A DNA stretch of 64,000 nucleotides from NCBI GenBank assembly GCA_013288325.1, contig JABDCB010000004.1, forward strand, positions 4,485 to 68,484. The letters run 5' to 3'. Origin of the DNA: Bacteroidota bacterium (GTDB lineage Bacteria > Bacteroidota > Bacteroidia > Palsa-965). Below are positions 4,156 through 32,526 of this stretch, piece by piece. The notes under the pieces were generated by a model. It was not told the origin of the DNA, ran no database searches, and was given only the letters and a program-made list of their open reading frames with translations. Position 1 is the stretch's first letter, and the number at the start of each line of letters is the position of its first letter. The position numbers and the translations under genes are program-made.

Positions 4156-5109
4156 ATGAGCCAACGAATTCTCGCCAATGACGGCATCGACCCACAGGGC
4201 AAAGCCCTTTTAGAGAAAGCCGGATACACGGTAGTTACAGAAAAAGTAGCACAGGATAAACTAGCCGAGGAGCTGAATGCCCACCGTTATGTGGGTATTA
4301 CCGTTCGCAGCGCTACCCAGGTTAGAAAAGAAGTGATTGATTCCTGTTCTCACCTCCGCTTGATAGGCCGGGGAGGTGTTGGAATGGATAATATTGATGT
4401 GGACTATGCGCGCAGCAAAGGGTTACAAGTGGTAAACACCCCGGCCGCCTCTTCCCATTCTGTTGCCGAACTGGTATTTGCCCATCTTTTCAGCATGGTT
4501 CGTTTTCTGCAGGATTCCAACCGTCATATGCCCCTGGAAGGAAATACGAAATTTGATGCACTAAAGAAAAAGTATGCAAAAGGAATTGAACTGAAAGGAA
4601 AAACAATCGGTATAATAGGCTTTGGAAGGATTGGACAGGCCGTAGGAAAAATAGCCCTGGGTTGCGGAATGAAGATTGAAGCGTATGATCCCTTTTTAAC
4701 CGAAGCCCTGCTCCCTCTTGATATTCAGGGAGCCGGAAAAGTTGAAGTAAAAATCAAAACTGTATCACTCGAACAAGTGCTGAAACAAAGTGATTTCATT
4801 ACCCTGCATGTTCCAGGCGGAAAAGTGATTACTCATAAAGAGCTGGCACAAATGAAAAAAGGTGTTATGCTGGTGAATGCATCACGCGGAGGAGTAATTG
4901 TAGAAAAGGATCTGATTGATGCACTTAACTCCGGACAGGTGGCCAGAGCGGGACTTGATGTATTTGAACATGAACCTACTCCCAGCCAGGATATTATATC
5001 CCATCCGGGCATTTCTCTGAGTCCGCATATAGGCGCCGCTACCGAAGAAGCCCAGGAACGTATCGGGATTGAACTCGCCGAACTGATCATTGAGAAACTA
5101 AAACAATAA
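4156..5109 (+). CDS. serA: D-3-phosphoglycerate dehydrogenase / D-2-hydroxyacid dehydrogenase
   Basis: NAD-binding GIIGFGRIGQAV. Catalytic-region motifs NASRGGVI and PHIGAAT. Lies next to serC. Confidence 0.88.
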   Translation: MSQRILANDGIDPQGKALLEKAGYTVVTEKVAQDKLAEELNAHRYVGITVRSATQVRKEVIDSCSHLRLIGRGGVGMDNIDVDYARSKGLQVVNTPAASSHSVAELVFAHLFSMVRFLQDSNRHMPLEGNTKFDALKKKYAKGIELKGKTIGIIGFGRIGQAVGKIALGCGMKIEAYDPFLTEALLPLDIQGAGKVEVKIKTVSLEQVLKQSDFITLHVPGGKVITHKELAQMKKGVMLVNASRGGVIVEKDLIDALNSGQVARAGLDVFEHEPTPSQDIISHPGISLSPHIGAATEEAQERIGIELAELIIEKLKQ

Positions 5110-20890: not shown

Positions 20891-20897
20891 GGTGGTG

Positions 20898-20981
20898 TGC
20901 CCGAGGAGAGACTCGAACTCTCAAGGATATAACTCCAACGGCTTCTGAGACCGCAACGTTTACCAATTTCGCCACCCGGGC
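20898..20981 (-). tRNA. tRNA-Leu (anticodon CAG), type II with long variable arm, no encoded CCA
   Basis: The reverse complement folds by hand. Acceptor GCCCGGG/CTCGGGC; anticodon loop CTCAGAA; T-arm GAGAG-TTCGAGT-CTCTC; variable stem GGA/TCC. The discriminator A is followed by CAC. Confidence 0.88.
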
Positions 20982-21024
20982 TTAATAAATTCTAAATCAC
21001 AATTTTAAAATCCTAAATTCTTCT

Positions 21025-21107
21025 TGGTGCCCAGGACGAGACTCGAACTCGTACGGTTGCCCGCCACCCCCTCAAGATGGTGCGTCTGCCAATTTCGCCA
21101 CCTGGGC
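21025..21107 (-). tRNA. tRNA-Leu (anticodon GAG), type II, CCA encoded
   Basis: Acceptor GCCCAGG/CCTGGGC; anticodon stem CCATC/GGTGG with loop TTGAGGG; T-arm ACGAG-TTCGAGT-CTCGT; 3' ACCA. Confidence 0.9.
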
Positions 21108-21124
21108 CTAAAAATTTAGGATTG

Positions 21125-21132
21125 CAAAGATA
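21125..21132 (-). promoter_or_regulatory. -7 promoter box (TATCTTTG on the minus strand) for the tRNA-Leu pair
   Basis: Exact TAnnTTTG match 18 nt upstream of the tRNA 5' end. Confidence 0.4.
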
Positions 21133-21275
21133 TATCTTTTTCCGATTTTATACATAAATTCTATGTTTTAAGGCTTTTGAAGGGTTTTATGGTCAAAAAT
21201 CAACTTCTGCTCTGACTTTTGTCATTTTTTTCCGTCCTCCGGCTACTGAACTTTGTATAAACAAATTCAAAAGCC

Positions 21276-21461
21276 ATGAAAAGCAAACTGCCAGTTTATA
21301 TTATTGGACTCATCCTTATTGCTGTTCCATTTAAAATAGCATTCTTGACTCCTTCTTCCTCTTTCTTTGTCAATATTGCCTCTTTTCTGTCGGTTCTTAC
21401 CGGCTTTTTGGTGATACTTCTAGGTGGTGCCAGCGATGGTCAGGAACATGAACATTCTTAG
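21276..21461 (+). CDS. possible small two-helix membrane protein
   Basis: 61-aa ORF with two hydrophobic segments and an acidic/His tail (SDGQEHEHS). No other support. Confidence 0.3.
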   Translation: MKSKLPVYIIGLILIAVPFKIAFLTPSSSFFVNIASFLSVLTGFLVILLGGASDGQEHEHS

Positions 21462-21612
21462 GAGTTTTCTTCCTCATTTATTACCAATCAGCTGATTTAC
21501 AAGCACAAGTAATTGTGCTAAAGATATAGTTGATTTGAGTATCCTGTTCGTTTCTCTGATGCTTTATCATGGAATAACAGATTCCTCATCTACCATTCCG
21601 CCATTCTGAGGA

Positions 21613-21822
21613 ATTTCCGGGCATAGTAGTACAACTGCTAAGCATTCGTATACGATTACTAAGTATTTTCATACGACTGCCAGGTTTTCTATTCCCACTT
21701 CTAAATATTCTGATACCACTCCAAGGCTTTTCATTTCAACTGCCAGGCATTCATATACCACTACCTCGCGGATCAATACAACTACCTCGACTTCTTATAC
21801 AACTGCTTCGCATTCCGTTACC
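21613..21822. repeat. tandem array of a degenerate 21-bp unit (9 clear copies plus 1 degenerate), consensus about ACTGCYAAGCATTCNTATACC
   Basis: Copies start at 21634, 21655, 21676, 21697, 21718, 21739, 21760, 21781 and 21802. Eight begin ACT and one ATT; most end ATAC(N). A weaker copy lies at 21613-21633. The phase is strictly 21 bp with no spacers. Confidence 0.9.
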
Positions 21823-22053
21823 ATCTGTGTAAATAGCATCCATATCCGGTAAGAAACGGTTTGTGTTGCAAGGAATTTCTGGCAGAATTGTAAAGCAAAA
21901 GGTATGCCTTTTACCCGAGCCTCTTATGAATGTGTAAAAGGAACAGAGATCTATATCTTACACGCCCTCCTTCACTTTCCAACTGTTCAAAATTTGATAT
22001 ATTTACGTTGATTATTCAACCCTTTCATACTAATCCGCAAACCCTAAATCCCT

Positions 22054-23106
22054 TTGTCGCAGGTAAATGAAGATCTGATACGGAGAGTTTTTGAGGAAAT
22101 GGTCAAACACAAACCTGCTCTTGCCAAATATCTGGCAGCAGATGAAGATGACCCTTCCGAAACGGTGGATACCCGTGTCCTGGCGGATATGATTATCAAA
22201 CATTTTCCATGGCCCATAGGCGTGGAGCTGAGAAGATTATTCTCCGGTTCCATGCGTCAGCTGGACAGGGGCCGTCTGGATCAGCTTTTTAAAACGATAG
22301 AACGGACCATTCAGTTTCTCAGCTTTGTGATGCTGGCTCAGCTGTGGGAAGAGAAAATAAAACGAAAATTTGATTTCCCCAAGGAGTATGCTTCCCAGTT
22401 CAAGAATAGGATTTCAGTCCTTTCTCTTGGTAATTATACCTGGTTGATACGTGCCACGGGCAATCTGTTTGAATCGCTGGAGATAGACCCTTTCATGCCC
22501 GAAATGAAAGAGATGCTTCACAAAAAATTGTATGAAGCTCTTGATTTCTGGGTACCGGAGCGAAATGAAATCGGGCATTACCAGATTAATCTGACGGATG
22601 AAGAAATACAAAAACGCTGTGTAGAATATGAGGATAAGCTCACGTTTATTCTTCAAAACATTTCGTTTATCGTAAAGTATAAACTGGTTACCATCCGCGA
22701 AATCAAAGTACTGAAACAAAAACACAAAGAGCCCCGCTTTAACCATATCATGGATCTGTTGAATAATTCCGATTCGGATTTTAAAGCCACGGAAATGCAG
22801 CACGATGTTTTTGCCGATAGCAACTCGGTATTGCTCATGAAAGATTTTAAGGTGCCGGAAGAATTTTTGAATCTGAGTCCACTGATCATTGATACCCGTC
22901 CCGAAATAATCGATTCTAAAGAGAAATTCAATCTCAAGAAAGATATTTTCATGTACACCAAATTCAGCAATGATAAGCTGATGTATGTGGGTACGGAGGT
23001 GACGGAGAAATGTGACCTCAGTTATCTGAGCAATTATCCCGTCCTGGTAGAGCAGTTCAAAGAATTGCTTACCGCTTTTGCTGCACCTGAAACGATCAAT
23101 TCCTAA
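22054..23106 (+). CDS. hypothetical protein with HEPN-like Rx4H motif (helical N-half, mixed C-half); first gene of the STAND module
   Basis: 350-aa ORF. ERNEIGHY at residues 169-176 (nt 22558-22581; the RNEIGH core is residues 170-175, nt 22561-22578) fits the HEPN RNxxxH pattern. The stop lies 5 nt before the next start. Start uncertain (TTG 22054 or ATG 22099). Confidence 0.78.
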   Translation: MSQVNEDLIRRVFEEMVKHKPALAKYLAADEDDPSETVDTRVLADMIIKHFPWPIGVELRRLFSGSMRQLDRGRLDQLFKTIERTIQFLSFVMLAQLWEEKIKRKFDFPKEYASQFKNRISVLSLGNYTWLIRATGNLFESLEIDPFMPEMKEMLHKKLYEALDFWVPERNEIGHYQINLTDEEIQKRCVEYEDKLTFILQNISFIVKYKLVTIREIKVLKQKHKEPRFNHIMDLLNNSDSDFKATEMQHDVFADSNSVLLMKDFKVPEEFLNLSPLIIDTRPEIIDSKEKFNLKKDIFMYTKFSNDKLMYVGTEVTEKCDLSYLSNYPVLVEQFKELLTAFAAPETINS

Positions 23107-23111
23107 GCATC

Positions 23112-26000
23112 ATGCAGGGCAGCCCGTTCAAGTTTCTGGATAGCTTTACAAAGGAAGACAAGGATATTTTCTTCGGGCGCGACCGGGAAATAGAAGAAAT
23201 CTATTCCCGTGTTTTCCAAAGCAACCTTTTGCTTGTATACGGTGCTTCGGGAACGGGTAAAACAAGTCTTATCCAATGTGGTCTGGCCAATAAGTTTAAT
23301 GATTCCGACTGGCTTCCTATTCTCATCCGCCGCGGAAGCAATATACTTACATCCATACGGGCTCAGCTGGAGCATCTGGCCATTACACCCATTAAAGAAG
23401 GGGCTTCGTTAAAAAAGTCGATCGAGTCCCTTTATCTGGATCATTTCAAACCGGTATATCTCATATTTGATCAGCTGGAAGAGCTTTTTATTTTCGGATC
23501 CCCGGACGAGATCGGCGGTTTTGTGACGGAAGTAGCAAAGATTTTAAAGTCCGATTTGCAGTGTAAATTCATTTTCATTATCCGCGGCGAATACCTCGAA
23601 CACCTGAGTGTATTTGAAGAAAAGGTTCCCGAATTTTTCAGCAACCGGATACGGATTGAAAAGATGACACGTCTGCACGCCGCAGAAGCCATTACAGGTC
23701 CTTGCCGTAAAGCAAACATTGGTCTTGATCCAGGGTTTGAATTGAATTTTCTGGAGATGCTTTGTCCCGGCAAAGCCGAAGTGGAACTCACCTACCTCCA
23801 GGTTTTTCTCGATAAGCTGTATAAGAAAGCTGTTCAGAAAAATGCGGCCCATCCTGTTTTTACCAATGGACTGTTAAAAGAAACGGGACAGATCAGCGAC
23901 GTGCTATCCGATTTCCTGGAAGAACAGATAGCACGTATCCCCGACTCGGAAGCTGCACTGGCGGTGCTGAAAAGCTTTGTATCCATGGAGGGTACAAAAC
24001 GACAGGTTGATATAGAGGAGATTGAAAAGTTTGTAAGAACACTGGGCAAACAGCTGCCTCTGGAAACCATAGAAAAGCTGGTGCACCAGTTTGTGGATCT
24101 ACGCATTTTACGTGATAAGGATGAGTCGGGCAAATATGAGTTACGTCACGATTCCCTGGCGGTAAAGATCTATGAAAAGATTACCCTGGTTGAAAAAGAT
24201 CTGATAGAGGTGAAAACGCTGATTGAAAATGCGTATTCCAATTATCTGAAGCGACATATTCTCATTCATGAAAGCGATCTGGCCTATATAGCACCTTATG
24301 AGCGCAATCTATTTTTAAGCGAGAAGCTGCAGCAGTTTCTGGATGATAGTAAACGTGCTTCTACGCAGACAAAAAGACGCAGACGACTTGCCTTATTTAT
24401 CGTAACTGGTGTGGCATTTGCGGTACTGAGTGGTTTTACCATCTGGGCCATGAGCGAACGGACCCATGCCATGGAACAAAGCCATGAAGCGGAGAAACAA
24501 AAAATGCTGGCTGAGCAGGAAAAGAATGAAGCCCTCCGATCTAAAGATGAAGCAGTAAAGGCCAATGAGCAGGTGATGCAGGAAAAACTGATTGCGGAGA
24601 AAAATGAGCAGTCGGCATTGGCTGCCAAACAACTGGCCGACAAGGCCAAACAGCAAGCCATGACTGCCATGAATGAGGCGGAAAGAGAAAAAGGGAACGC
24701 CATGTCTCAATCCGAGATTGCAAAAAAAGAAGCATTGAATGCAGAAGCTCAGAAAGAGATAGCCAAAAAAGAAAAAACAAAAGCTGAAGAGTCGGAGAAA
24801 AAAGCACGAAAAAGTTTTGTGCTTTCACTGGCTCAGGGCATAGCCCTGAAGACTCCCCTCTATAAAAATGATCTTCAGCTGGAAGCATTATTAGCTTATC
24901 AGGCTTACAAACTGAATAAAGACAATAACGGACCTGCTCAGGATCCGGTGATCTTTGATGCCTTAAGATCCGCGTTGGGAGCTCCTGACAAACAAAAAGT
25001 AAATCCGGACATAGGGTTTGTACAAACCAATGAATTCATAGCCCTGCAGGAAAGAAACGATACCCTTGTATATGCTGCCCGAAGCGGTTTCATATTCGGA
25101 GTGGATAAAAACAAGCCTTCTTCCTTTACCATCGCAAAGTTGCTGAGCTATCGCTTTTCAATCGATAAACTCTTTTTTAATGCCACAGGCAATTATATAG
25201 TGAGCTCGCATGTAAACAACAGTCTTTGTTTATGGACCCAGCAGCTTCACAATACCGCTCCCGCCTTTCAGGAGTTAACCGGGCATAAAGGTCTTGTCAG
25301 ATCTCTGGCATTCAATACCCGTTCCGATCTTTTTGCAAGCGGAGGAAAAGACAGCCTGCTTATTATCTGGTCCTTACAATCCGGAAAAGCTGCACAGCTC
25401 AAAACAATTAAATTGAATGCTGCCGTCAAGAAACTGGTTTTCTCGAAAGATGAAAGTCAGCTCTTTTGTCTGCTCGAAAACGGCACGATACAACAACTGG
25501 ATCTGAAAACATATACCTATATCCCCTACCCGTACGCAGGCACATCCAAACCGATGGAGATCGCATTGAACCGGAAGAAAAACAAATTGTTGCTTGGACT
25601 GGCCAATGGAAATTTGTGGTCGGAAGATCTGGATACCCACACGCATAGTGATTACAGAGCCCATTTGAGTGGCATTGATTTCCTGGTATTCAATAAAGAT
25701 TACAGTATGCTGGCATCAGCGGGATCGGATCGTACCCTTAAAATTTATGATGCCGATAACCTGGAAAGCAGTCCTATCTCGATTAAGGATCTTCATTCCA
25801 AAGCAAGGGCCATTATATTTACCACCGGCAACCAGCTTTTTGTAGCCTGTGCCGATATCAAAAGCTATCTGATAGAAACATCTTGCGACAGGATGGCTGC
25901 ATCCATTTATCAAACGCTGAAAAGGAATATGACTCAGGACGAGTGGGCTAAGTTTTGTAAAGATGTGACGTATGAAAAAACAAGACCAGATCTGCCTTAA
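23112..26000 (+). CDS. STAND-type P-loop NTPase (nSTAND/NACHT-like) with single TM helix, coiled coil and WD40 repeats
   Basis: N-terminal PFKFLDSFTKEDKDIFFGRDREI; Walker A GASGTGKTS; Walker B VYLIFDQLEE; YELRHDSLA; KRRRR plus a TM helix; K/E/A/Q coiled coil; WD40 blades (LTGHKGLVRSLAF...GGKDSLLIIWSL and AHLSGIDFLVF...AGSDRTLKIYD). Confidence 0.9.
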   Translation: MQGSPFKFLDSFTKEDKDIFFGRDREIEEIYSRVFQSNLLLVYGASGTGKTSLIQCGLANKFNDSDWLPILIRRGSNILTSIRAQLEHLAITPIKEGASLKKSIESLYLDHFKPVYLIFDQLEELFIFGSPDEIGGFVTEVAKILKSDLQCKFIFIIRGEYLEHLSVFEEKVPEFFSNRIRIEKMTRLHAAEAITGPCRKANIGLDPGFELNFLEMLCPGKAEVELTYLQVFLDKLYKKAVQKNAAHPVFTNGLLKETGQISDVLSDFLEEQIARIPDSEAALAVLKSFVSMEGTKRQVDIEEIEKFVRTLGKQLPLETIEKLVHQFVDLRILRDKDESGKYELRHDSLAVKIYEKITLVEKDLIEVKTLIENAYSNYLKRHILIHESDLAYIAPYERNLFLSEKLQQFLDDSKRASTQTKRRRRLALFIVTGVAFAVLSGFTIWAMSERTHAMEQSHEAEKQKMLAEQEKNEALRSKDEAVKANEQVMQEKLIAEKNEQSALAAKQLADKAKQQAMTAMNEAEREKGNAMSQSEIAKKEALNAEAQKEIAKKEKTKAEESEKKARKSFVLSLAQGIALKTPLYKNDLQLEALLAYQAYKLNKDNNGPAQDPVIFDALRSALGAPDKQKVNPDIGFVQTNEFIALQERNDTLVYAARSGFIFGVDKNKPSSFTIAKLLSYRFSIDKLFFNATGNYIVSSHVNNSLCLWTQQLHNTAPAFQELTGHKGLVRSLAFNTRSDLFASGGKDSLLIIWSLQSGKAAQLKTIKLNAAVKKLVFSKDESQLFCLLENGTIQQLDLKTYTYIPYPYAGTSKPMEIALNRKKNKLLLGLANGNLWSEDLDTHTHSDYRAHLSGIDFLVFNKDYSMLASAGSDRTLKIYDADNLESSPISIKDLHSKARAIIFTTGNQLFVACADIKSYLIETSCDRMAASIYQTLKRNMTQDEWAKFCKDVTYEKTRPDLP
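23241..23267 (+). other. Walker A P-loop of the STAND NTPase
   Basis: GASGTGKTS, codons checked against the nucleotide sequence. Confidence 0.9.
24387..24452 (+). other. single predicted transmembrane helix of the STAND NTPase
   Basis: LALFIVTGVAFAVLSGFTIWAM, preceded by KRRRR. The positive-inside rule places the NTPase in the cytoplasm. Confidence 0.75.
25029..25886 (+). other. WD40 beta-propeller region of the STAND NTPase
   Basis: Repeated GH...(S/A)(G/A)(G/S)xD..(I/L)..(W/Y)(D/S) blade signatures. Boundaries approximate. Confidence 0.7.
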
Positions 26001-26012
26001 ATCAATAACCGC

Positions 26013-27194
26013 ATGAACCTTAGAACCACGCTTACGGAATCAAGGATTGTCAGGTTTATTATTATATGCCTGCTTGTTTTGTTTTGCAACAGGACGGTGG
26101 TGGCACAAAATGGAGTGGCCCGTGCCATTTCCGATTTCAATTCTATTTCTGAACAATATCTTCAGAGTGCTCAGGAACTGTTTAATAATGGTGATTATGA
26201 TTCCTGTATTGCTGTTCTCAACAACGGGCTTAAGGTAAATATGTTTGACCGGAAAGGGAATGAAGACATGTTATGTCTGAAGACGAAAACCTACCTGGAA
26301 AAAGATGATCTGAAAGATGCGGAAAAAACAATGAAACAGTTGCTCGAATACAATCCGCATTATGAACTTATCGAGTCTCAAAACACCGAAGATTTTAACC
26401 GGCTTTTCAAACAATTCGATGTCCATGCCAAGCTTACGTTCGGCATCCGAAATACACTTATGTTTCCGGCCCTTAAAACTACTGCCATTTATAGTGCTGT
26501 TCCGGATTATAATTACACAGCCCCTTATAACACGGCCAAATACTTTCTGATGTATTATGGCTGGGCCGAGTATCAGTTCAGAGATAATATCTCCATCAAT
26601 ATGGAAGGCGTATACTGGAGCCTGTCATACAGCCGTAATATGGCTCTTACCACCAATACCACACTGAATATGAATGAGCAGATGCATATTTATGAAATCC
26701 CTGTTTTTGCCCGTTTTTATATGCCCCACAATATGAATATCCCTTTTCTGAAAAATATTTTGCCCTATGCAGCTTTTGGAATCGGTTATCTGCATCTGAA
26801 AGATGCTACGGCCAATTTTAATGAATATGTTATCAATCCATCCACCGGTTATTTAACCAGCAATAGCTATGCAAACGGCGTAAACATGATGAATATGCGG
26901 GCTGCAAACACCTTTGAATGGGTATATGGTTTGGGAATAGGGTATAAAATAAAAAATCTGAGATTATACCTCGACTGGAGAGCTTATGCAGCCATGAATA
27001 CATTGACTGATGCGAGTAAAAGAACCAACAACGTTGACCTGTATAACTACTATTCCTATGTAGACAATGGTATCAAACTGAATAAATCGGAAATAGGTGC
27101 TTCGATTTCATACACCCTGAAAAATTCGGTAAAGAAGAAATCGATCAAAAAAAGCCACACCATCGTGCAGGGTGCTTATAAAGTGAATAAATAA
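26013..27194 (+). CDS. signal peptide + TPR-like helical region + outer-membrane beta-barrel protein
   Basis: Hydrophobic N-terminus ending VVAQ. Then a ~100-aa helical region (AQELFNNGDYDSCIAVLNNGL...AEKTMKQLLEYNP). Then ~250 aa of Tyr/Gly/Asn-rich alternating strands (WVYGLGIGYKI, LYLDWRAYAA). Starts 12 nt after the NTPase stop. Confidence 0.75.
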   Translation: MNLRTTLTESRIVRFIIICLLVLFCNRTVVAQNGVARAISDFNSISEQYLQSAQELFNNGDYDSCIAVLNNGLKVNMFDRKGNEDMLCLKTKTYLEKDDLKDAEKTMKQLLEYNPHYELIESQNTEDFNRLFKQFDVHAKLTFGIRNTLMFPALKTTAIYSAVPDYNYTAPYNTAKYFLMYYGWAEYQFRDNISINMEGVYWSLSYSRNMALTTNTTLNMNEQMHIYEIPVFARFYMPHNMNIPFLKNILPYAAFGIGYLHLKDATANFNEYVINPSTGYLTSNSYANGVNMMNMRAANTFEWVYGLGIGYKIKNLRLYLDWRAYAAMNTLTDASKRTNNVDLYNYYSYVDNGIKLNKSEIGASISYTLKNSVKKKSIKKSHTIVQGAYKVNK

Positions 27195-27196
27195 TA

Positions 27197-29065
27197 TCAG
27201 AATCGTATTCCGATAACGAGTACATCATCGGTTTGCTCCTGCTCTTCTTTCCACTCTTTCAAATAATTTGCCAGAAATGTTCCCTGCTCCTTCATGGATA
27301 GATTGCGGATAGAAAGCAACACCTCTTTCCATTTGGAAGACTTGAGTTTCTTCCCTCCTTTTCCAAACTGATCGGAATACCCATCGCTGAAAACATATAC
27401 GATGTCGCCGGCTTTCATCTCGAACGAATGTGTTTCAAACTGTTGTTCATCCGGGGTATAACCACCTATGGCCACCTTGGTAGCTTTTATTTCTTCCATT
27501 GCCAGGGCTTCTTTTCTCAGGATCCACAAGGGTCTGTTGGCTCCTGCATAATACAGCATGGTTTTACCGGAAGCGGATGAAAGATGCAACAAGGCAATAT
27601 CCATTCCATCGCGCGTTTCTCCTTCCTGTCCGCTCTGCCCCAATGCTTTCTTCATTCCCTGATTAAGCTGACGGAGTATTTCTCCTGCTTTCCTGCTTTT
27701 CATCAGGGCCTCATTCAGCTTTTCATAGCCCAGCATACTCATAAATGCACCCGGAACACCATGACCGGTACAATCAACCGCTGCTAAATAACAAGCATCC
27801 TCTCTTTGATCTATCCAGTAAAAATCTCCGCTGACAATATCTTTGGGTTGAAAAAAGATAAAACTATCGGGAGCCGTTTTTTGCAACATACCCGGTCGTG
27901 GTAGTATAGCCTGCTGGATACGTTGTGCATAATTAATACTCGCTGTGATATCCTTGTTTTTTTCTTCTATACTGTCGTATGCCGATTTCAGCTCTACATT
28001 TTTGAGGCGGTGAATTTCTGCTTCCTGTTCAGATCGTTCAACGGCAAAAGCGATCTGCTGATTTTTAAGCCGGTTGCCCGATTCAGCATTCAATACTTCT
28101 TCTTTTAATGCATGAAAAGCGCGGAAATGATTCAATGCCTCTTTTGCATTACCCTGCTGTTCATACAAAGCTGAAAACAGGGAATGGATTTCATATAACA
28201 AAGGTTTGGCCTGCAGTGCATCTGCAATCTGTTTTGCTTTCTCCAGTTTTTCTATCCCCTGTTCAGGATCCGACATAGCCAGAGCATGATTGGCAAAGCC
28301 CAGCAAACAATATAAGGCAAGACGTTTATCCTTATCACCGGTATTCAGCGTTTGACAATGCTGATAATAGAAAAGCGCTTTTTCCGGATCCTGTTGTTTT
28401 TCGTATAGCGATGCCAAACCCAGATAGCTCCACGGCAGGGCACCCATTTCTTTAAGCTCTTCCCGAAGGTTGATGCTTTTCCAGTAATAGTCGAGCCCGT
28501 TTTTAAAATCGCCTTTGGCCGTATAGGTTCTGGCAATCATATTTAACGATGATGCTACGGCTTTGAGATCGGGAATCGATTCGCGTATGCGCATACTTTT
28601 CTGGTACGATTCCAAAGCATGATCATAATCGGCTATGCGGAAATAGATGGTGCCTGTGGTGCTCAATATATCGCCAAGGCCTTCCTGATTACCGATAGAC
28701 TCGCCTATTTTAAGTCCCCGCTGACACGCTTCCAACCCTTTATCATACTGTCCGTAGGTATCATATACATTTCCAAGATAATTCAGAGCACGTAGCTGAC
28801 CCAGGGCTTCGTGTGTATGATCAAAATAATGGAGGGATGCTGTCAGATCAAGAAGCATGGAGTCCTGTTCCTGAGAGCGTAAAAAAGCACAAACTCCTTC
28901 ATATAAGCGGGCGTAAGCAACTCCCCGTTCGTATCCTATAACTTCCGATTGTTTATGCGCTTGCTTTGCCTGTTCCAGCGCTTTTGAAGTATCACTGTAT
29001 CTCCACGACCATGCCTGCTCGTTCATGGCGTCAATCCGGCTAATATCCTTCCCTGGCTCTGGCAC
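27197..29065 (-). CDS. cytoplasmic TPR-repeat SpoIIE/PP2C-family protein phosphatase
   Basis: N-terminal TPR repeats and a coiled coil. C-terminal PP2C motifs DIVSGDFYW, DCTGHGVPGAFMSM, SDGYSDQF, DDVLVIGIRF. Start uncertain (GTG 29065 or ATG 29026). Confidence 0.88.
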   Translation of the reverse strand: MPEPGKDISRIDAMNEQAWSWRYSDTSKALEQAKQAHKQSEVIGYERGVAYARLYEGVCAFLRSQEQDSMLLDLTASLHYFDHTHEALGQLRALNYLGNVYDTYGQYDKGLEACQRGLKIGESIGNQEGLGDILSTTGTIYFRIADYDHALESYQKSMRIRESIPDLKAVASSLNMIARTYTAKGDFKNGLDYYWKSINLREELKEMGALPWSYLGLASLYEKQQDPEKALFYYQHCQTLNTGDKDKRLALYCLLGFANHALAMSDPEQGIEKLEKAKQIADALQAKPLLYEIHSLFSALYEQQGNAKEALNHFRAFHALKEEVLNAESGNRLKNQQIAFAVERSEQEAEIHRLKNVELKSAYDSIEEKNKDITASINYAQRIQQAILPRPGMLQKTAPDSFIFFQPKDIVSGDFYWIDQREDACYLAAVDCTGHGVPGAFMSMLGYEKLNEALMKSRKAGEILRQLNQGMKKALGQSGQEGETRDGMDIALLHLSSASGKTMLYYAGANRPLWILRKEALAMEEIKATKVAIGGYTPDEQQFETHSFEMKAGDIVYVFSDGYSDQFGKGGKKLKSSKWKEVLLSIRNLSMKEQGTFLANYLKEWKEEQEQTDDVLVIGIRF

Positions 29066-29196
29066 GTGAAATGATGTTTCAACAAATATAGGGGATTATC
29101 AATCAGGCAAAAATCAGCATTATTCGTCTCTACTTAACCTCTAATAAATCCTTTTTTGATATATTTAGCCACTATTGCCAAGACACCCCATTGACT

Positions 29197-32100
29197 ATGC
29201 GTTTTATATTACGATTCTTCTGTTTTTTTCTGCTGCTGACAGCTCCTTCCTTATGCTTATTAGCTCAACCTGAGGATGTTAAATTTGAAAATATTCCATC
29301 TGAACAAGGGCTTTCGAATAAATCAATTCCAGCCATTATTGAAGACAAGCAAGGTTTTCTTTGGTTTGCTACCCAGGATGGACTGAATAAATATGACGGG
29401 TATGAGTTTAAGGTGTTTCAAAACGACCCGTCCGATTCCAACACCATTTCCAATAATAATATCTTTTGTCTTATACAGGATAAGGATGGATTTCTGTGGA
29501 TGGGTACAGAAAACGGAGGTCTTAATAAGTTTGACCCCCGCACGGAAAAGTTTACGCGGTTTATACACGACGAAGGCAATGCATCTTCTATCTGCAGCAA
29601 TAATATCTACAGTATCCTACAGGCCAAAAACGGAGATCTGTGGATCGGAAGCTGGGAAGCAGGCATTGATGTTATGGATCCTAAAACCGGGAAAATACTA
29701 AACCGCTATCATCACAAATCAGGAAAAGAAAATACCCTTTCCAATGGCGGTATCTGGAGCATATTTGAAGATGAAACGGGCATATTCTGGATCTCTACCT
29801 GGGGCAGCGGGCTTGATAAGCTTGATCCGGCAACCGGGCGATTTAAACATTTCCGCCACGACCCTAAAAACCCTTCCAGTATAAGCCATGACATCATTGG
29901 TCCTGTTTATGAAGATAAACATGGCCGTATATGGGTTGCCACCTGGGGCGGTGGATTAAACCTGCTGGACAGAAAAAAAGAAACATTCCGGAGTTTTCAA
30001 CATGCTGCCGATAATCCAAAAAGTATCGGAAGCAATCTGATCTGGCCTATAACCGAAGATTGGGAAGGTAATTTATGGGTAGGAACATATGGCTCCGGTG
30101 TTAACCGTTTTGATCCCCGGACAGAAAACTTTCACCGCTTTGCTCATGATGCCGATGATCCAACCAGTCTTAATCACAATGATGTCTGGTCGCTGCACCT
30201 CGATCGCTCCAATATTCTGTGGGTTGGTACCGAAGGTGGAGGCATAAGCAAATATGTCAATATCCGTAAAGAAGTAGATGTATATGCTTATGACCCGGGC
30301 AATCCGCTTAGTCTGGGTCATAATTCTGTTCGTGCAGTGCATGAAGATCAGGATGGTATCCTTTGGATCGGAACCTGGGATGGAGGACTTGATAAATATG
30401 ATCCATCGGTAGAGAAAATAAAAAATTACAAATTAGATGATAATGAAGAAGGCACTTCGGGATTAAACAAGATCAAATGCATTACAAGCGATCATACCGG
30501 AAGGCTTTGGCTGGGTACTTATCGTGGGGGGCTTTGTGAGTTTAATAAGAGTACGCAAACGTTTACCAACTACACCCACGATCCATCCAACCCCTCCTCC
30601 ATCAGCGACGATTATGTTTACTGTCTGGAAGAAGACAATCAGAATAATTTGTGGGTTGGAACACTCAATGGTCTCAATATTTTTGACCGGACATCAAAAA
30701 CGTTTACCCGTATTAAAAGTGATCCGGCCAATGAACACAGCCTGAGTAATAATACTATCAACACCATCTATCAGACCAAAGATGGCACTTTATGGTTCGG
30801 TACCGATTACGGACTGAACAAATATGACTACACCAAAAAATCGTTTACCCGGTTTCTGCATGAAGCACAGGACCCGCATAGCCTGAGCCATAGTACCGTT
30901 TATACCATCTATGAAGATAAAACCGGCATCTTATGGATAGGTACCCGAAACGGACTTAACAAATTCAATCCCGCTGATCATAGCTTTGAACATTATGATA
31001 CCAAAGACGGACTTCCGAACAGTATTATTATGTCTATACTGGAAGATGCAAAAGGAGATCTGCTTATCAGTACCAAAAATGGCATTTCCCGTTTTAATAA
31101 AGAACAAAAAACATTTATCAATTACGATCTCAGCGATGGTATACAGGGCCGCCAGTTTTTCCCTAATTCCTCCTGCAAGGCAAAAGACGGGAAACTTTAT
31201 TTCGGTGGCACAGAAGGACTCAACTCCTTTTATCCCGATCGTATACAAAATAACCCGTATATACCACCGGTTGTTATTACAAGCATAAAGAAATCGGGTG
31301 AAGAAATCCGTTTTGGAAAACTTATTGAGAATGTAAAAGAGCTTGTCCTCCCCTATCATGAAAACTCACTTTCTTTTGAGTTTGTTGGTCTCAGCTATGC
31401 CAACCCCGATGAAAATCAATATGCCTATAAGCTGGAAGGTGTTGATGAAGACTGGAAATACAGCGGAAATGTACGGGTAGCCAACTATTCCAATCTGAGA
31501 CCAGGCAACTACATATTCCGGGTAAAAGCCTCTAATGATGATGGGCTCTGGAATAACAAAGGCGCCAGTATCCGGGTTACCATTACTCCGCCTTTCTGGA
31601 AAACACTTTGGTTTTTTATTCTCTGTATTCTTCTCGGGTTGGTTCTTATATTTCTGTACATCAAGAACAGAGAGCGGAAATTATTAAAGGAGAAAAAGAT
31701 CCTGGAAGATAAGGTGGAAGAAAGAACCGCTGAGGTGATGACACAGAAAGAAATTCTTGAAACTCAGAATAAAGAGATCAGAGATAGTATTTTATATGCC
31801 AAACGTATTCAGGAAGCTATTCTACCGGCTCAGGAAGATGTGCTTCATGCTTTCCCTGACTCCTTTATTCTTTTCAAACCCCGTGATATTGTAAGCGGTG
31901 ACTTTTACTGGTTCTCCGAAAAAAATGGCAAAGCTATTGTGACAGCAGCCGATTGTACCGGACATGGCGTTCCGGGAGCCTTTATGAGTATGATAGGCAA
32001 TACCCTGCTCAATCAGATTGTAAATGAAAAAGGGATTGTAAAACCCGATGATATCCTGCTGCATCTGAGGGAGAATATCATGAAAAGTCTTAAACAAACC

Positions 32101-32526
32101 GGAGCCGAAGGTGAAAATAAAGACGGTATGGATATTGCGCTTTGTACCTACGATCTGAATACAAGGGAGCTGCAATTTGCAGGTGCTAACAACCCGCTTT
32201 ATATTGTCAGTAATGGGGAGTTATCGGAAATTAAAGGTGATAAACAGCCTATTGGTGTATACATGGGCGAACCCAAACCATTTACCTGTCAAACCGTACA
32301 GCTTCAAAAAGGAGATTGTGTTTATATTGCCAGCGATGGATATGCGGACCAGTTTGGCGGATCGCACGGCAAAAAATTCAAATACAAGCAAATGAAAGAC
32401 TTGCTGCTGGCTTTGAATGACAAAAAAATGTCTGAACAACGTATCACCCTCAACGAAGAAATTGAAAAATGGAAGGGCACGCTTGAACAGGTGGATGATA
32501 TCCTTGTTATCGGTTTCCGGGTTTGA
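29197..32526 (+). CDS. periplasmic beta-propeller (two-component-regulator propeller + Y_Y_Y) sensor fused via one TM helix to a SpoIIE/PP2C phosphatase
   Basis: Signal peptide; many W(I/V)GTxxGGLxxFD blades; YAYKLEGVDEDW; TM helix LWFFILCILLGLVLIFLYI. The PP2C motifs are the same as in the neighbouring paralog (DIVSGDFYW, DCTGHGVPGAFMSM, DDILVIGFRV). Confidence 0.9.
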   Translation: MRFILRFFCFFLLLTAPSLCLLAQPEDVKFENIPSEQGLSNKSIPAIIEDKQGFLWFATQDGLNKYDGYEFKVFQNDPSDSNTISNNNIFCLIQDKDGFLWMGTENGGLNKFDPRTEKFTRFIHDEGNASSICSNNIYSILQAKNGDLWIGSWEAGIDVMDPKTGKILNRYHHKSGKENTLSNGGIWSIFEDETGIFWISTWGSGLDKLDPATGRFKHFRHDPKNPSSISHDIIGPVYEDKHGRIWVATWGGGLNLLDRKKETFRSFQHAADNPKSIGSNLIWPITEDWEGNLWVGTYGSGVNRFDPRTENFHRFAHDADDPTSLNHNDVWSLHLDRSNILWVGTEGGGISKYVNIRKEVDVYAYDPGNPLSLGHNSVRAVHEDQDGILWIGTWDGGLDKYDPSVEKIKNYKLDDNEEGTSGLNKIKCITSDHTGRLWLGTYRGGLCEFNKSTQTFTNYTHDPSNPSSISDDYVYCLEEDNQNNLWVGTLNGLNIFDRTSKTFTRIKSDPANEHSLSNNTINTIYQTKDGTLWFGTDYGLNKYDYTKKSFTRFLHEAQDPHSLSHSTVYTIYEDKTGILWIGTRNGLNKFNPADHSFEHYDTKDGLPNSIIMSILEDAKGDLLISTKNGISRFNKEQKTFINYDLSDGIQGRQFFPNSSCKAKDGKLYFGGTEGLNSFYPDRIQNNPYIPPVVITSIKKSGEEIRFGKLIENVKELVLPYHENSLSFEFVGLSYANPDENQYAYKLEGVDEDWKYSGNVRVANYSNLRPGNYIFRVKASNDDGLWNNKGASIRVTITPPFWKTLWFFILCILLGLVLIFLYIKNRERKLLKEKKILEDKVEERTAEVMTQKEILETQNKEIRDSILYAKRIQEAILPAQEDVLHAFPDSFILFKPRDIVSGDFYWFSEKNGKAIVTAADCTGHGVPGAFMSMIGNTLLNQIVNEKGIVKPDDILLHLRENIMKSLKQTGAEGENKDGMDIALCTYDLNTRELQFAGANNPLYIVSNGELSEIKGDKQPIGVYMGEPKPFTCQTVQLQKGDCVYIASDGYADQFGGSHGKKFKYKQMKDLLLALNDKKMSEQRITLNEEIEKWKGTLEQVDDILVIGFRV

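Follow-up and report, generated by a model that had tools for sequence, protein, structure and literature searches.

NTPases of the STAND class, including the NLR proteins, are understood as cytosolic sensors. The only descriptions of the family nSTAND1 (PF20703) are as the NTPase of proteins predicted to act against invaders, which carry adaptor or effector domains at their N-termini (PMC8195603; Kaur, Iyer, Burroughs and Aravind, eLife 2021); EAD10, bDLD3, TIR, caspase and others occupy that position, and the proteins are treated as soluble (PMC8195603). The term 'transmembrane STAND ATPases' has been used once, in passing, for sensors of protease-effector modules in Actinobacteria and cyanobacteria (bioRxiv 10.1101/2025.11.14.688446). 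Here, we describe a locus of three genes, named A, B and C, in a Bacteroidota bacterium of the lineage Palsa-965 (assembly GCA_013288325.1, contig JABDCB010000004.1). It lies in a stretch of 64,000 nucleotides (contig positions 4,485 to 68,484, forward strand) that was analysed as a whole and is called the window below. Protein B resembles the nSTAND1 conflict proteins in its profile match, its intact Walker motifs and its C-terminal repeats, which are of the WD40 type. It differs from them in that it has no N-terminal domain, in a transmembrane helix between the NTPase and the repeats, by which the sensor would be periplasmic, and in a separate, obligatorily linked protein A as the putative output. 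We propose that the locus is a trans-envelope STAND signalling module with the pair A and B as its core, which is the best-supported reading and one that we hold with about even confidence. A family whose sensor half lies beyond the inner membrane would extend the STAND/NLR paradigm to the envelope.

The first-pass annotation of the window, made by a model from the letters, had held that no system of this composition is described. Literature searches (nSTAND1, transmembrane STAND, and HEPN with STAND and GldM) bear this out in that no published description of the A family or of the module was found, subscription journals being outside their coverage. The annotation had also placed three same-strand open reading frames (ORFs) here, 5 nt (A to B) and 12 nt (B to C) apart, and the ORF list of the window agrees with it in position, strand and spacing. 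The features on which the argument rests are the following.

22054..23106, plus strand: gene A, 350 aa with a TTG start, a cytoplasmic protein and the constant partner of the nSTAND1 NTPase
22561..22578, plus strand: codons of R170-N171-E-I-G-H175, the HEPN-type R-N-x3-H motif and putative catalytic site of A
23112..26000, plus strand: gene B, 962 aa, with an nSTAND1 module, a single transmembrane helix, and a predicted periplasmic helix and WD40 propeller
23241..23267, plus strand: Walker A of B, G44 to S52, GASGTGKTS including K50, conserved across 66 family members
24387..24452, plus strand: transmembrane helix of B, residues 426-447 with KRRRR directly before it, a predicted signal anchor with the N-terminus inside
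24489..24821, plus strand: predicted long helix of B, residues ~460-570, rich in Ala, Lys, Glu and Gln, from sequence and composition
25026..25886, plus strand: WD40 propeller of B, residues 639-925, from matches to Pfam WD40 and beta-propeller families
26013..27194, plus strand: gene C, 393 aa, predicted to be secreted, with a signal peptide, a TPR-like region and an OmpA/OmpW-like barrel

The synteny scan employed one genome per GTDB species and exact peptide patterns, and the species count is a lower bound; relatives of A were found in at least 173 of 185,579 species genomes. B homologues were present in 77 of 83 loci. Where both flanks were complete (43 loci), a B homologue adjoined A in 42, the single exception having a frameshifted B, and C was found in 22 and the phosphatase gene D, described below, in 16. 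The conserved co-occurrence across Bacteroidota that the first annotation had thought worth looking for is thus nearly universal for A and B and extends to A, B and C in about half of the loci, which supports the operon-like unit it had assumed. A terminator scan found no terminator-like site in the A-B and B-C gaps, and the promoter-like matches of the region occurred at chance frequency. The adjacency of A and nSTAND1 was also seen at every distant relative whose context was examined, namely CHAT-A fusions, a fusion of a helix-turn-helix (HTH) domain, a cyclase and A, and three distant stand-alone members. At the HTH-cyclase-A locus nSTAND1, WD40 and a C-like barrel follow the fusion gene. 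A and B are the invariable core of the module.

Protein B matches nSTAND1 over residues 5-349 (E 3.7e-38, 132.6 bits against a cut-off of 27.1). Its Walker B motif, LIFDQLEE at about residues 116-123, is conserved across the same 66 family members as Walker A, and an ELRHD motif at residues 343-347, nearly invariant in these members, resembles the MHD motif of NLR proteins by sequence only. The family match and the intact Walker motifs confirm the assignment to the STAND-type NTPases, K50 is the Walker A lysine as had been proposed, and since the match begins at residue 5 there is, again as proposed, no N-terminal effector domain.

Every full-length B homologue has exactly one hydrophobic segment (at residues 423-513), and this segment directly follows the NTPase module. 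Its flanks carry on average 6.9 Lys and Arg residues on the N-terminal side versus 3.0 on the C-terminal side, and 65 of 66 proteins have the excess on the N-terminal side. Under the positive-inside rule such a bias places the NTPase in the cytoplasm and the remainder outside. Independent support is found in paralogues of B in several loci, where GldM domains three and four, in some cases together with TPR, stand in place of the WD40 repeats (L026 9081-11615, L027 12917-16198, L035 9170-12241, L043 14041-16134 and the P0247 locus). GldM is the periplasm-spanning arm of the gliding and type IX secretion system (T9SS) motor, and its periplasmic domains after the transmembrane helix argue for a periplasmic location of the C-terminal half. 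The KRRRR stretch and single transmembrane helix of the first annotation are thus in place, and its N-in/C-out topology is supported: the nucleotide switch is probably cytoplasmic, and the helix and the WD40 propeller are probably periplasmic. The GldM domains further suggest, from sequence, that some members of the B family may dock on the outer-membrane ring of the T9SS and gliding machinery.

A coiled coil of about 120 aa had been proposed to follow the transmembrane helix, and this much of it stands, that a segment of about 110 residues (~460-570), rich in Ala, Lys, Glu and Gln, is present there. Its composition is like that of TolA domain II, and it is predicted to form a helix that would be long enough to span the periplasm. 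In this part of the gene (24500-24640) there is also a periodicity of 42 nt, or 14 residues, the second strongest in the window. The WD40 repeats that the annotation had recognised are matched by Pfam at residues 639-925; they are the C-terminal superstructure-forming repeats of B, and the propeller they form is predicted to be a periplasmic sensor or docking domain.

Protein A belongs to an unnamed family. Its homologues make up more than 1100 clusters, all hypothetical, at 62-96% identity, and it is 62-68% identical across metagenome-assembled genomes (MAGs) of Bacteroidales, Cytophagales, Chitinophagales and Flavobacteriales. An exhaustive profile search gave 814 representative clusters at 50% identity, 497 of them with E <=1e-10. 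Searches with the window protein itself against Pfam (with E allowed up to 10), NCBIfam, PADLOC and the PDB sequences (two profiles) gave no match. The AlphaFold2 model of A (pLDDT 77.5, pTM 0.83) has a helical domain at residues 1-208, modelled as all-alpha, and a beta-rich domain at 210-345, for which weak OB-fold-like matches were obtained that are not relied on here. EACC1, Pepco and CATASP were considered as the identity of A and rejected on size and architecture.

The RNEIGH motif, in which the first annotation had seen the HEPN signature, is invariant (R170-H175) in 26 homologues of A. It is also kept in distant relatives: across 30 stand-alone proteins, down to 24% identity, R170 and N171 never vary, and the conservation of H175 is 90% or higher. 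In many clusters of the family the whole A domain forms the C-terminus of a longer protein, and the Pfam architectures of ten such extended proteins comprise AraC HTH with class III cyclase and A, AraC HTH with A, and CHAT protease with A. When 115 representatives were aligned to the A profile, R-N-x3-H was present in 29 of the 41 stand-alone proteins and in none of the 74 N-terminally extended ones. Proteins only 24-29% identical to the window A are among the stand-alone keepers of the motif, and the HTH fusions, which are much closer relatives, are without it. This signature of the family, HEPN-type residues retained only where no other output is fused, yields a sharp prediction on function.

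In a Pfam scan of the 30 stand-alone members, four HEPN families rank at the top, with all matches below the curated cut-offs: HEPN_RiboL-PSP in three proteins (best E 5.5e-4), HEPN_Swt1 in two, and HEPN_Apea and Cas_Csm6_HEPN in one each. In the alignments for which coordinates were given, the motif region of A falls on the C-terminal part of the HEPN profile, which bears the HEPN motif, and one family member has a sub-threshold match to NCBIfam cas_csm6. Taken with the motif, these sequence matches make it rather likely that the helical domain of A is a HEPN domain. The residues that are conserved across the whole superfamily, fusions included, are P52, P54, G56, R60, L62, R74-Q77 and L272-D280; lying outside the motif, they are candidates for a surface by which A would dock on the NTPase.

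Protein C has an N-terminal hydrophobic signal sequence with predicted cleavage at VVA/Q32, and Gln after the cleavage site is typical of Bacteroidota signal-peptidase I substrates (PMC5837995). Its AlphaFold2 model (pLDDT 83.5) has TPR-like helical hairpins at residues 28-132 and a beta-barrel at 135-375 (barrel pLDDT about 90). Foldseek against the PDB ranks the OmpA transmembrane domain first (E 1.6e-9), then OmpW, Ail, OmpX and NspA, with OmpA, OmpW, Ail and OmpX at E 1e-9 to 1e-5. Profile matches are weak for TPR and below the cut-off for the NCBIfam TDE1717 barrel (E 1e-6); the window protein has no Pfam OMP_b-brl match, and homologues carry PF13568 (precomputed or weak). The model thus bears out the first annotation, and C is by this prediction a secreted TPR protein with an OmpA-like outer-membrane barrel. 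Clustering by blastp places a member of the C family in 40 of 83 loci, in each case immediately behind a B of the WD40 type; C is an accessory of this subtype and not the integral third component it had been taken for.

The first annotation overlooked a fourth gene, which is convergent with C and lies 2 nt from its end.

27197..29065, minus strand: gene D, 622 aa, a predicted cytoplasmic protein with TPR and a PP2C phosphatase domain of the SpoIIE type, from Pfam TPR_12 and SpoIIE

Full-length orthologues of D (E 1e-126 to 1e-293) are found in 20 of 83 loci and in 16 of the 43 with complete flanks, in varying position and orientation. D lies downstream in the window and in seven other loci, and divergently upstream of A in eight, seven of which are labelled Bacteroidales or Rikenellaceae and one Chloroflexota. 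A linkage that survives rearrangement suggests a functional tie. Related combinations occur as well: the TPR domain of D is joined to HATPase_c in L001, and at L013 and the P0247 locus the operon includes TPR-cyclase genes.

Gene content varies in further ways. Six loci (L026, L027, L028, L040, L049 and L057) carry two to four tandem paralogues of B with different periplasmic parts behind a single A, and in L037, L056, L060 and L081 the A gene is duplicated. In Cytophagales and Chitinophagales, C is followed by one or two genes without Pfam match (~610-640 aa or 415-450 aa). The CHAT-A loci have a short nSTAND1 gene of 354 aa and then CarboxypepD_reg-like and S41 peptidase genes, and upstream a 586-aa gene, with weak LapA/PspA-like matches only, overlaps the start of CHAT-A. 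The loci with further genes and with CHAT-A have the coordinates L010 12948-16626, L002 13073-15592 and L088 6244-13953. The module is also present on contigs of MAGs labelled Chloroflexota and Roseobacteraceae (L072, L068 and L080), with an A 61-63% identical to that of the window, much the same as for the Bacteroidales copies; here a binning error is more likely than transfer.

Selection was assessed as the ratio of nonsynonymous to synonymous substitution rates (dN/dS) against a relative, L093/L094, that is 93% identical at the DNA level. The ratio was 0.01 for A, 0.02 for the NTPase of B, 0.04 for its transmembrane and helix part, 0.09 for its WD40 part and 0.05-0.07 for C. Such low values indicate that A, B and C are real genes under strong purifying selection, and gene-wide positive selection on the periplasmic parts, looked for in the same comparison, was not found. 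Median identity to the window proteins across 29 loci was 64% for A, 55% for the NTPase of B, 35% for its transmembrane and helix part, 29% for its WD40 part, the fastest-evolving part of B, and 35% for C. The cytoplasmic core is constant, and the parts exposed in the envelope are fast-changing and still under purifying selection.

A segment covering the 3' third of A and the A-B junction (22728-23177) is 97-99% identical to L093, compared with about 92-95% elsewhere in A and B, and its synonymous rate is 0.09 versus 0.35-0.45 elsewhere. The low rate may reflect constraint at the nucleotide level, such as translational coupling or an internal signal, or chance.

One may from these observations outline how the module would work. 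A change in the outer membrane or the periplasm would be sensed by the propeller together with C, which the propeller probably contacts, or in paralogues by a GldM-like domain, and the signal would pass through the single transmembrane helix of B. The cytoplasmic NTPase would then exchange nucleotide and oligomerise as STAND proteins do, and the oligomerised B would gather its bound copies of A. Stand-alone A would be the output, probably as a HEPN RNase that is switched on at its R170/H175 site when two copies dimerise, and RNA cleavage would lead to growth arrest or reprogramming. In the fused relatives the A domain has lost the motif residues and carries the CHAT protease, the AraC DNA-binding domain or the class III cyclase in their place, and the A domain would accordingly be the fixed adaptor through which exchangeable outputs are brought to the NTPase. 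The phosphatase D would probably modulate or relay the signal. What this scheme takes from observation is the conserved gene order, the domain identities, the transmembrane helix common to all full-length B homologues, the charge bias, the fusion architectures, the motif pattern and the purifying selection. What it infers is that A contacts B and B contacts C, that A cleaves RNA, what the stimulus is and what D does. More tentatively, and with less than even confidence, we suggest that the A/nSTAND1 pair represents a new class of trans-envelope signal transduction, in which a STAND NTPase with a propeller or GldM-like sensor in the periplasm serves as transmembrane receptor and an adaptor plugs in HEPN RNase, CHAT protease, class III cyclase or AraC outputs.

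Several observations weigh against the proposal. Foldseek of A against the PDB and BFVD returned nothing significant and no HEPN structure, and no fold or profile match above threshold joins A to HEPN. In the AlphaFold2 model the RNEIGH motif forms a low-confidence hairpin (pLDDT 62-71) 6-12 residues before the helix at 182-202, not the start of a helix. The HEPN-like label of the first annotation is thus probable, on the motif kept in stand-alone relatives and on the weak family matches, and is not backed by any fold match. Half of the loci lack C, and about 60% of the well-flanked ones lack D, so that neither can be essential to the core mechanism. The best 80 carrier species are all uncultured MAGs. 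Finally, nSTAND1 was itself defined from predicted conflict systems directed at invaders (PMC8195603), which favours a role in defence.

Such a role would be that of an anti-phage abortive infection system of the Avs or bacterial-NLR kind: the periplasmic propeller, with C, would detect a phage component crossing the envelope, the NTPase would oligomerise, and A as a HEPN protein would degrade RNA and thereby kill or arrest the cell. We regard this as possible and as less likely than the proposal above. Besides the origin of nSTAND1, several points speak for it: effectors of conflict systems are typically of the HEPN or CHAT kind, and A occurs fused to CHAT; in L026, L027, L040, L049 and L057 B paralogues that differ in their sensor domains stand in tandem; the distribution over species is patchy, the sensor half evolves fastest, and the transmembrane STAND ATPases were named as sensors of defence modules (bioRxiv 10.1101/2025.11.14.688446). 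Against defence speaks the genomic context, which in the window consists upstream of a two-component system, an RND efflux pump, an M1 peptidase sorted by the T9SS (Por_Secre_tail) and two tRNA-Leu genes, and downstream of two PP2C regulators, topoisomerase IV and YchF; elsewhere the flanking genes include GlnS, FolB, RsgA, UPRTase, a rhamnosidase and others like them. PADLOC gave sporadic, mostly generic matches only for 139 neighbour proteins from 67 loci, and within the module nothing for A or C and only mad8 for B, a marginal match (E 1.2e-4) over the P-loop. The sampled loci are not defence islands and their context is housekeeping, so that a location in defence islands, raised by the first annotation, was not found, and its conflict framing has no contextual support. 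The framing also sits poorly with the strong purifying selection and the high conservation of A and the NTPase, that is, with an A that changes so little across Bacteroidota orders and with dN/dS of 0.01-0.09 and no diversifying selection seen. The AraC-HTH and cyclase outputs and the linked TPR-PP2C gene resemble ordinary signalling and point at least as much to signal transduction. Context, sequence conservation and the HTH, cyclase and PP2C partners together favour ordinary signalling, and envelope stress or another envelope signal is somewhat more likely as the trigger than phage attack. If the trigger were phage entry, the module would be a form of defence able to detect infection while the phage genome is still outside the cytoplasm.

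The missing fold or profile match above threshold speaks for A as a non-enzymatic docking or regulatory subunit, with R170 and H175 used for binding and with D, the TPR-cyclases and the histidine-kinase-like ATPases as outputs of a phospho- or second-messenger relay. The superfamily-wide conserved residues outside the motif and the recurrence of TPR-PP2C, TPR-HATPase_c and TPR-cyclase genes beside the pair would fit such a relay. It is nevertheless improbable, because the frequent absence of D-type genes would leave many modules without an output, because a motif that provides the output only in proteins with no other output fused to them would show just this split of RNxxxH (29/41 versus 0/74), and because the weak matches converge on four HEPN families. 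Very improbable, in our judgement, is a structural or mechanical tether formed by B and C across the envelope, like TolA-TolB-Pal or GldM, which would serve outer-membrane integrity or support gliding and the T9SS and in which the NTPase would be an assembly factor. The TolA-like composition of the periplasmic helix, the GldM D3/D4 domains of B paralogues and the T9SS cargo of the host (Por_Secre_tail) are in line with it, and a beta-propeller with an outer-membrane TPR protein recalls TolB, Pal and CpoB. But STAND NTPases are switches, not motors, and no motor genes of the TolQR, ExbBD or GldL type were seen in the sampled loci; an obligatory partner A with HTH, cyclase and CHAT fusions would make no sense in a tether, and the module is absent from most Bacteroidota.

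The DNA 5' of the module was compared with the same relative, and the region common to both is short.

21978..22053, plus strand: conserved 76-nt region 5' of A, the sole upstream DNA common to the window and the 93%-identical relative

By blastn the homology of the window with L093/L094 begins at 21978, 76 nt before A, and the DNA further upstream is unrelated. The conserved region probably holds the promoter and 5' untranslated region of A. A sigma-70-like site was found by promoter scan at 21976-22003, such sites occurring at chance frequency in the region, and no exact match to the Bacteroidota TAnnTTTG motif was found upstream of A.

The first annotation had reported a 21-bp repeat array ahead of the operon. 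Its periodicity is real: about 9-10 degenerate, non-coding direct repeats with the core TACAACTGCnnnGCATTC lie at 21630-21839, with autocorrelations of 0.55 at lag 21, 0.57 at lag 42 and 0.52 at lag 63, and the lag-21 value was reached in 0 of 5000 shuffles. Tandem Repeats Finder did not report the array, which was detected by the repeat search and autocorrelation. It contains no ORF with a start codon and has no Rfam match, the Rfam scan of the region returning two tRNAs only. Its attribution to the module did not hold, because the array lies outside the homology with L093/L094, was sought upstream of A in L005 and L008 and not found, and has a repeat unit that gave single chance matches only in a metagenome-wide scan. 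It is possibly a set of phased binding sites or a decaying minisatellite. The array is part of a synteny breakpoint directly upstream of A (20897-21977), which on the minus strand holds tRNA-Leu CAG (20897-20981) and tRNA-Leu GAG (21025-21107), and which also includes a 61-aa hydrophobic ORF (21276-21461). At the corresponding place L093 has a CHU_C-domain gene, and the breakpoint may be a rearrangement or integration site beside tRNA genes.

Beyond D, the window encodes on the plus strand (29191-32526) a 1111-aa protein with eleven Reg_prop repeats, a Y_Y_Y domain and a C-terminal PP2C/SpoIIE phosphatase. Reg_prop/Y_Y_Y is the periplasmic sensor of hybrid two-component systems, and here PP2C replaces the kinase, receiver and HTH output. 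Full-length matches to this protein were found only in the nearest relatives L004 and L005; L093 has a 1109-aa gene in that place. As a whole, the anatomy drawn by the first-pass annotation was largely right, apart from an array that is an unrelated neighbour, a C that is a subtype accessory, the missed gene D and a defence label without contextual support.

The family is large and strongly conserved, with at least 814 clusters of the partner protein at 50% identity and an nSTAND1 neighbour in each sampled context. If the proposal is true, the module adds a new trans-envelope signalling route in Bacteroidota to the anti-sigma/TonB and hybrid two-component systems. Among described systems, Avs and the related bacterial NLR-like proteins share with it the passage from sensor repeats to NTPase oligomerisation and to an effector activated by proximity, and HEPN-type and protease effectors. 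An Avs protein, however, is one cytosolic polypeptide with its effector fused on, and it meets the phage proteins that it recognises in the cytoplasm, whereas in the module the effector is a separate protein, the sensor is predicted to be periplasmic and a partner lies in the outer membrane, with no PADLOC match and no defence island. The EACC1-caspase systems (Kaur et al., eLife 2020, PMC7159879) and the protease-effector modules (bioRxiv 10.1101/2025.11.14.688446) are likewise built from two genes, the 5' one constant and the 3' one variable and multi-domain; nSTAND1 is sometimes found in EACC1 systems (PMC7159879), and the CHAT-fused relatives of A are a further likeness. EACC1, however, is a small domain with a single transmembrane helix that forms pores after proteolysis (PMC7159879), and A differs from both EACC1 and Pepco in being a soluble, two-domain protein of about 350 aa without a transmembrane or hydrophobic helix and without similarity to them.

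On the envelope side the closest comparison is with Tol-Pal (TolA, TolB, Pal and CpoB), which likewise has a helix rich in Ala, Lys and Glu anchored in the inner membrane, a periplasmic propeller and an outer-membrane protein with TPR. The module differs from it in the lack of an OmpA-like peptidoglycan-binding domain and in a cytoplasmic side made of a STAND NTPase and a HEPN-like partner, and no Pfam families of TolQ/TolR or TolA domain III were found in the window or the sampled loci. In the logic of its signalling the module comes nearest to Ire1 and RNase L, eukaryotic HEPN/KEN RNases that become active through nucleotide-dependent oligomerisation. Ire1 has a sensor on the far side of the membrane, a single transmembrane helix, a cytoplasmic nucleotide-binding module that oligomerises and a HEPN-type RNase, the last of these predicted for A. 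The switches are not homologous, a STAND P-loop in one and a kinase fold in the other, and the output of the module is a separate polypeptide, so the analogy is one of logic only. If the proposal is true, the stand-alone form of the module would be a bacterial counterpart of this logic, by which events in the envelope are converted directly into RNA cleavage.

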